A stretch of DNA of 64,000 bases from Eledone cirrhosa. Taxonomy: Eukaryota. Shown here in pieces: positions 22,831-23,625 of the stretch (within the stretch, counting starts at the first letter, position 1; each line of letters opens with the position of its first letter). The stretch is taken from NCBI GenBank assembly GCA_964016885.1, contig OZ024750.1:5704001-5768000 (forward strand), in the 5' to 3' direction. The notes below the pieces were generated by a model that saw nothing but the letters and a program-made list of their open reading frames with translations, did not search any database and had not been told where the DNA came from. The position numbers and the translations under genes are program-made.

Positions 22831-23439
22831 AACCACAGCTATCACAGTTTGTTTACCAAACTACTATCAACAAGATGGCCGTGTTCTTCGAAATGCAGTG
22901 AAATTTACAGAGAAACAGATTATAGTGAAATGCAATCGATTCATCAGCGTTTAGTAAATTCTTCGTCATCAATAACAGCATCCATAGATTTATCTGCAAC
23001 GAAACTATCCCGATCATTATTTGCAGAGCAGATAACCTTTTTGTTTAAACAACAATTCGATTACAATCACCCAAATGGGGATTGAGTTATTGATTACTAT
23101 CACTAATTAGCCATCGTTATGTGAATATTGATCTTGGCCAATAATTTTGTATTTCGGAAGTTAGAATCTAAAATGTTTGGAAATGATTAAAATTTTATAA
23201 ATGAATTAAACTCTGCAAAGGCGAATGGCTGGATATGTACATTAGTTTCAAATGATACACAGACTGCGTGGTTGTGCACGTTCCGCTAAATGTATGTATG
23301 CATTTATACGTGTTATACGTGTGTATATGTGTCATTCTCTCTCTCTCTCTCTCTCTCTCTCTCTCTCTCTCTCTCTCTCTCTCTCTCTCTCTCTCTCTCT
23401 CTCTCTCTCTCATATATATATATATATATATATATATAT

Positions 23440-23625
23440 AGGAACGAGTAGGACCCCGACGGCTGAGCTCAAGCCGTTTCGACGGCTAATTCTAATTAGC
23501 CGTCGAAACGGCTTGAGCTCAGCCGTCGGGGTCCTACTCGTTCCTATTACCCACTCTACTACCCTAAGTATTGAGTACTTTGGTGCGTTATGGTCCACCT
23601 GGTTCCTTACCACATTTCCTTCGTT
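23440..23625 (+). mobile_element. TA-flanked foldback element, family A
   Basis: Perfect 54-bp inverted repeat (23438-23491 and 23494-23547) followed by the family end containing TTGAGTAC. Confidence 0.9.

Follow-up and report, generated by a model that had tools for sequence, protein, structure and literature searches.

How did a perfect inverted repeat of half a hammerhead ribozyme arise at positions 23438–23547 of the window, as we call the whole 64,000-nt stretch of Eledone cirrhosa DNA analysed here? The locus bears on the origin of the head-to-head inverted ends of Penelope-like elements (PLEs), on the strand that serves as their template, and on whether their hammerheads cut in vivo. 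The passages on self-priming in Arkhipova et al. 2013 (PMC3846280) argue for an antisense RNA template and call the matter unresolved, and those on ribozymes in Craig et al. 2021 (PMC8557442) term the function of PLE hammerheads unclear. The element class, the inverted ends and the core variant are already known; thousands of young junctions in this one genome provide a fossil map of 5' ends. What they suggest is a capped sense template with two priming events, an RNA start that leaves the 5' ribozyme unable to cut, and a U3-A8 hammerhead that does cleave.

The insertion and its parent element

Positions 23438–23491 and 23494–23547 form perfect inverted arms of 54 bp each around a 2-nt CT spacer; no inverted arm exceeded 10 bp when the element was shuffled 2,000 times. 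The sequence of each arm is TAGCCGTC-GAAA-CGGCT-TGAGCTC-AGCCG-TC-GGGGTC. The palindrome described in the earlier note is thereby confirmed, and so are its account of the arm as the 3' half of a hammerhead, which we find to be of type I, the absence of CTGAnGA and the 5' catalytic strand from both arms and, computationally, the long hairpin expected of a transcript through the palindrome (predicted fold energy −112.5 kcal/mol).

The palindrome is part of a larger unit, 23440–23627, which consists of two head-to-head terminal copies of a Hydra-clade PLE, has no single strand, and is set in (TA)n (left flank 23413–23439, right flank from 23628 onward). Only one of its arms extends into an 80-nt tail. 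The tail-less arm, 23440–23493 (RNA sense minus), has its outer boundary at end 1 (TTCCTAT) and its inner one 13 nt upstream of GAAA; the CT spacer lies within it and is parent sequence belonging to this arm. The tail arm, 23494–23627 (RNA sense plus), has its inner boundary 11 nt upstream of GAAA and its outer one at end 2 (TTCGTTAT). Along its plus strand lie the 3' strand of hammerhead helix II including C11.1 (23497–23504; a G-C to A-U double change marks the older subfamily), whose natural 5' partner is missing from this copy; the GAAA core, helix III with its TGAGCTC loop, and GUC (23505–23527), with a predicted cut after 23527; and the 3' strand of helix I, GGGGT (23528–23532), whose partner is ACCCC in the 5' half of the parent. 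End 1 follows at 23541–23547 (plus); its TAT matches the (TA)n target, and it would be the first start of reverse transcription, 61 nt past the putative RNA start. The tail, 23548–23627 (plus), is 5' UTR of the parent with a small hairpin at 23566–23580, and closes at end 2, the putative second start of reverse transcription, 141 nt past the RNA start. AGCCGTC is present twice within 23497–23527, so that strands of helices II and III are able to swap. No gene was evident near the hairpin among the ORFs at 20–27 kb of the window, and an Rfam scan of the window returned no hammerhead family among the 150 listed of 312 matches, which comprised only microsatellite and hairpin look-alikes below their thresholds.

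There are four sister copies within the window, three of them already noted at 5.2, 5.5 and 39.1 kb. The palindrome at 5156–5332 (tail arm sense on the minus strand) belongs to a different subfamily, that at 5419–5598 (minus) to the older subfamily with the helix II strand TCTAGCTG, and in that at 38995–39198 (minus) both arms reach the putative start site with a single G/C between them. The fourth, at 25470–25563 (no strand assigned), is deleted, its tail-less arm reaching the putative start site and being joined to a tail fragment. That the sisters fold at the same place is roughly right, but the remnants kept upstream of GAAA differ: 11 and 13 nt (tail and other arm) at 23440–23627 and 12 and 2 nt at 5.2 kb, from a mismatch-tolerant comparison that inflated some arm lengths, and about 17–18 nt in each arm at 5.5 and 39.1 kb. 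The loop sequences do differ, as the note said, but they are mostly parent sequence retained to unequal lengths. As separate observations, hammerhead look-alikes of other families, with CTGAnGA...GAAA and short helices, occur at 657 (plus), 15750 (minus), 16664 (minus), 24769 (plus), 50557 (minus) and 56279 (minus).

Longer copies of the family lead to ORFs for a reverse transcriptase with a C-terminal GIY-YIG endonuclease, and ORF pieces with RWR, DKT, LYRDDG, CxCx5C, VIYQC..YIG, CxxC and CxH were located between inverted arms. The 710-aa frame of copy L126 has RWR at 27 (the Hydra-type RWK motif), DKT at 109 (replacing DKG), LYRDDG at 339, CNCPDRSIC at 564 (the CxCX5C linker), VIYQC at 583, YIG at 598, and CNLC at 662 with CKH at 690 (CxxC and CxH). 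Pfam and PDB sequence searches of the ORF gave no match, so membership rests on these motifs; an intact ORF was found in none of the eight long copies examined. The unit is 3,496 bp from core to core in L369, and tandem copies run in the order hammerhead, end 1, tail, end 2, about 90 nt of UTR, and ATG. Each end has a TAT motif that corresponds to the target, and the insertions lie in (TA)n, as those of Hydra-clade PLEs do. An unrelated non-LTR reverse transcriptase ORF of 368 aa lies between two family copies at L121:1288–2391.

As judged from its sequence, the parent is a Hydra-clade PLE, and the palindrome represents the shortest version of an inverted structure already known in PLEs. The passages of Craig et al. 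2021 (PMC8557442) on this clade, which includes Hydra-1_Obim, give RWK-type, DKT, CxCx5C, CxxC and CxH as its motifs, and describe (TA)n targeting, partial tandems, a 5'-truncated inverted copy, a tail at one end, and a sense-oriented hammerhead near the 3' end, all shared by our family. By the same account, units there tend to be shorter (generally <3 kb, against 3.5 kb here), as are the tails (30–40 nt against 80 nt), and the dominant product here, a palindrome of about 185 bp, is unlike what is described. Hydra-1_Obim, whose hammerhead differs, is not the parent. In the literature searched we found no paper on palindromic Penelope retrotransposons in octopus. A MITE or DNA transposon was rejected, because one of the repeats lies 80 nt in from the terminus and the parent is a reverse-transcriptase element; an animal non-LTR retrozyme was rejected because the short units, lone inverted pairs, are not tandem and contain no core. 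Helentron, DIRS and parvovirus-like termini were considered and discarded after the reverse-transcriptase parent was discovered.

A 16-mer core occurs 70,853 times in the 3.0-Gb genome, and cores are paired head to head at no fewer than 16,837 places, at least, because the count took only two exact 15-mer cores no more than 60 nt apart. Pattern counts throughout required exact matches at a stringency that varied between counts, while tallies were made by eye over the first 50–100 matches by position. One side effect is that these at least 16,837 near-perfect hairpins of 50–60 bp are potential dsRNA where transcribed. Arm mismatches in 149 palindromes showed no excess of the kind left by A-to-I editing: there were 10 A>G and 8 T>C changes, compared with 49 CpG transitions.

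So many copies with fixed outer ends and a near-constant size could suggest that the short unit is itself a non-autonomous element propagating like a SINE or MITE, its apex having been lost after insertion (through a cruciform) or garbled in assembly. The apices speak against this. They were varied among the listed members of the 29 closest relatives (94–98% identity), and 61 different spacers were counted in 68 copies by the mismatch-tolerant comparison; varied arm junctions were also present in contigs of public runs, although these come from one study, possibly of the assembly's own sample. Spacers gain bases (oligo-A, C-A-G), no fixed internal sequence is ever present in the arms, which form a continuum with PLE copies kilobases long, and sequence beyond end 2 is absent from the short copies. 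We regard a self-propagating short unit as highly improbable.

The hammerhead of the long copies

The earlier note had taken GACGGCTA as the natural 5' strand of helix II and predicted uninverted copies with GACCCC-CTGAnGA directly upstream of that stem. No such copy was found, and GACGGCTA is instead made by the inversion, being the reverse complement of the 3' strand. CTGAnGA lies 6–36 nt upstream of GAAA in 48 of the 70,853 arms, and the 30 inspected were mixed junctions; a canonical CTGAnGA parent was therefore rejected. The true 5' half, about 70 nt upstream of GAAA in long copies, is ACCCC-YTGAnAA-G-nn-CGGCTATT. When its seven central positions were left open (ACCCC-N7-G-nn-CGGCTATT), 5,553 matches were obtained genome-wide, and the first 100 held YTGAnAA in 99 cases in place of canonical CTGAnGA, with all four bases occurring at position N7. 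The core pair is U3-A8 in about four-fifths of 5' halves and a C3/A8 mismatch in about one-fifth.

In 16 aligned copies GAAA and GUC were invariant, and 92.9% of cells in the hammerhead pairing were paired, against 22–51% in slid controls; for helix I (GGGGT/ACCCC) the value was 98.8%. Three helices including G10.1-C11.1 can be drawn. Three pairs of helix II are altered on both sides, essentially as one subfamily split. For the 3' strand TAGCTG of the older subfamily, CAGCTA was predicted in advance as the partner, and a compensating CAGCT(A) strand was present in all 100 listed of 106 matches. The hammerhead fold lay 0–12 kcal/mol above the minimum-energy fold in the 16 copies, an alternative hairpin competing with it, and four parent regions gave folding z-scores of only −1.2 to −2.8. 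From its core and helices the long-copy structure is a type I hammerhead of the U3-A8 variant, with cleavage predicted. A ribozyme with the YUGAnAA core escapes searches restricted to CTGAnGA.

A U3-A8 core is reported for Schistosoma PLEs in the part of Cervera and de la Pena 2014 (PMC4209133) on Cercyon, where the hammerhead in the terminal repeat has the same core covariation and motif pairs on opposite strands are noted too. The Cercyon hammerheads are described as minimal and thought to depend on dimers, whereas ours carries a helix III of its own, and its long loop II would hold the RNA start site. It is also unlike the Hydra-clade hammerheads in file S2 of PMC8557442, which are all canonical CTGAnGA with short loops II: here the core is YUGAnAA, loop II about 35 nt and helix III 5–6 bp.

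Polarity and symmetry of the arms

Exactly one tail was present in 151 of 155 palindromes. Of 124 pairs that could be classified, 116 had two arms of one subfamily, where 25% is expected at random, and two of the eight discordant pairs (L019 and L245) are clearly mixed, differing at 2–3 diagnostic bases. Under strict matching of 68 copies not chosen on their apex, the tail arm was longer in 30, the tail-less arm in 28, and the two were equal in 10. Both arms reached an upstream limit in 2,618 copies, many with 0–1 nt between them. We consider the parent, the fixed outer ends, the one-tail polarity, a bounded and variable fold point, and the long-copy hammerhead variant to be established.

The earlier note had proposed that cDNA could self-prime or switch template at helix II, read here as one cDNA turning back on itself and serving as its own template, a mechanism near the self-priming of Arkhipova et al. 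2013. Its fold point is placed correctly within the helix II region, the precise site being loop II, and fold points adjoining helix II, arms usually of one subfamily and the short templated insertions that occur in spacers all agree with such a fold-back. It requires, however, that the tail arm be longer by a loop of at least 3 nt, and this was not so in 45 of the 68 copies, the tail-less arm being longer about as often as the tail arm. Nor is natural loop II sequence kept as a loop, mixed-subfamily arms exist, and the tail-less arm of the long copy L113 holds ORF sequence that the tail arm is without. Because of the symmetric lengths, the 0–1-nt spacers and L113, a fold-back cannot explain the arms, while two primings can; the symmetric lengths alone largely refute it, and we now hold it very unlikely.

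It is probable, in our judgement, that the hairpin consists of paired terminal PLE copies produced by double priming on capped sense RNA, with the cDNAs joined end to end. The GIY-YIG endonuclease would cut both strands of (TA)n, and two reverse transcriptases would prime at the two ends of one cut, each starting at one of the two TAT motifs, which lie 61 and 141 nt from the RNA start; as a rule, both would copy a single molecule. They would run to the cap or to the ribozyme cut, after which the cDNAs would be trimmed and joined; trimming, microhomology of 1–2 nt and small templated insertions would make nearly every apex unique. The short hairpins would be abortive products, outnumbering long copies by about 5:1 (78 against 16 of 100 arms), and long copies would need read-through of an uncut tandem or transfer through a 41-nt redundancy. 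A capped sense template contrasts with the antisense template in the self-priming passages of PMC3846280.

L134 and L138 carry the same rare variant, in the tail arm of one and the tail-less arm of the other, each with a normal partner, which suggests two RNA templates. In L135, L272, L277 and L280 the cDNA ends carry oligo(A) stretches as long as about 20 nt, by slippage or terminal addition. Apex fusions of family arms to other repeats were seen in L031, L040, L051, L059, L044 and L364; in L044 the fused partner is itself palindromic and has the motif CTGAAGAGG.

A close biochemical parallel is PAc, the Anolis Poseidon element, as its in vitro activity is described in Frangieh et al. 2024 (PMC11167929): both strands are cut and extended, a dimer is predicted, two internal RT starts set the tail, the target is AT-rich, and a hammerhead lies upstream of the starts. 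By that description PAc mainly uses uncut RNA and no RNA reads began at the cut, whereas insertions ending at the cut are enriched here, and the starts fall in the ORF, not in the 5' UTR as in our family; the passages on PAc do not address an inverted product or the RNA start. With L1 (the passages on 5' ends and twin priming in PMC4859970) our insertions share an extra G at full-length 5' ends and two primings at one site, but in L1 twin priming one RNA copy is inverted without duplication, whereas here the same 5' segment is copied twice.

The two limits of the arms and a possible strand transfer

The first 100 exact-core arms of C1 ended at most 23 nt upstream of GAAA in 78 cases, at 24–60 nt in 6 and beyond 60 nt in 16. 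The limit is a TYAGTY motif in loop II, which we take to resemble an initiator, and its A lies 18 nt upstream of GAAA. The motif stands in the same register in the older subfamily, though most of loop II differs there, and 98 older-subfamily palindromes also fold at it. A non-parental G occurs on both arms at the limit in 294 copies, against 6 for A on both arms and 59 for G one base downstream. In long copies the base before the start A is T or C, and G in 1 of 119. The commonest spacer at the site is C-A-G (24 of the first 50; 26 together with C-G), and one base downstream it was counted by eye in only 4 of the first 50; it was seen twice in the older subfamily, where the nearby template is absent.

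The excess of non-parental G is established. We infer that C-A-G represents a cap-derived C followed by an added A, as if reverse transcriptase copied the cap as C and then added A's, and the fold limit is likely the start of a capped RNA within the element's own hammerhead. The RNA would begin at the A of TYAGTY, and if so, the mRNA starts inside loop II and the 5' ribozyme cannot form: that copy would be without its YUGAnAA strand and could not cut, while a fully transcribed copy could. For RNA beginning at this A, a hairpin over GAAA is predicted in most young copies, a side observation. An untemplated G is an accepted cap mark in L1, according to the passages cited above (PMC4859970). Drosophila virilis Penelope likewise has a TATA-less internal promoter with an initiator in its terminal repeat, in the promoter sections of Schostak et al. 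2008 (PMC2377424), which do not state a start inside a ribozyme. We found no earlier report of a start site inside a PLE hammerhead, nor of cap and cut signatures at a PLE fold, in the literature searched, which left subscription journals and bioRxiv supplements outside its coverage.

Several counts would also suit double priming with a limit that is not a capped start, at which reverse transcriptase stalls or a nuclease cuts loop II, with the C supplied by templated insertion or terminal addition. In roughly 41 of the first 50 G/G spacers the opening bases resemble arm sequence close by (CAG, CCAG or longer, on either strand) and only 9 are without such a template, so the C could come from templated insertion. 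Young-subfamily tail arms at the site continue with A in 26 of 30 and with C in 1 of 30, which implies that many RNAs start a few bases upstream or lack the C. A single C/G spacer can be read either way if the parent itself carries C at −1, which is the case in 26 of 119 long arms, and a second candidate start 4 nt upstream did not pass its control (11 against 16) and was dropped. Against this alternative, the limit tracks the initiator-like motif in register across subfamilies, the C is specific to the limit position and rare in the cut-site class described next, and there is no stable structure at the limit once helix II is opened. We judge a limit other than a capped start unlikely.

A second fold class lies at the predicted ribozyme cut, and its existence is equally established. 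Among unselected arms, 7 of 84 end 0–2 nt from the predicted cut, one of them a false call caused by a local duplication, and 1 of 84 ends 3–15 nt from it. Counts of single arms genome-wide were 560 for those ending at the cut and 108 for those ending two bases further, the control having used a looser filter. Both arms lie at the cut, 0–6 nt apart, in 302 mini-palindromes; the corresponding control, two bases further, gave 2. Among the first 50 of the cut class are 12 with a lone A/T spacer, 14 with no spacer, possibly from CG microhomology, 1 with C-A-G, and 9 in which an arm runs past the cut; the numbers for lone A/T and C-A-G are as expected of an uncapped end. The subfamily that includes the C3/A8 mismatch is rarer in the cut class (27 against 49 of 100 rows, by eye; p = 0.002). 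This suggests, indirectly, that the hammerhead cuts in living cells, where cut RNA would yield the mini-palindromes under double priming.

From the putative start, the cut lies at 41 nt, end 1 at 61, end 2 at 141 and the ATG at 232 (L188). Start and cut together would give the PLE mRNA a 41-nt terminal redundancy resembling the R region of retroviruses, and strong-stop cDNAs of 61 and 141 nt, made near the cap, might use this repeat to jump to the 3' end left by the ribozyme, so that the whole element is copied; palindromes would then be strong-stop pairs integrated without a jump. Same-sense jumps from 5' ends to ORF sequence occur in L197, L356, L367 and L368. The predicted cap scar was not enriched in long copies genome-wide (G at 2 independent loci against A at 6), and subfamily switches across the 41-nt region are few (about 4 of 121). 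Tandem read-through accounts for the long copies equally well, and we regard the strand transfer as rather doubtful. No paper on PLE strand transfer or strong-stop DNA was found in the literature searched. If true, such a transfer would assign a role to PLE hammerheads and connect the replication of PLEs with LTR-type strand transfer.

Three individual copies deserve mention. A circle junction at the ORF start was found in one copy only, L367 near 1500 (G000:C2:271251780), where each arm breaks off precisely at the predicted cut and is followed by sequence from the start region of the ORF; this single copy could be read as a circle or as a template jump from cut RNA. L368:430–1570 starts at the putative start site, reaches about 750 nt into the ORF, and is fused to another start-site unit; this structure suggests a partial tandem arising from a jump at a 5' end. 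In the long copy L372, G precedes the start A in all three terminal repeats.
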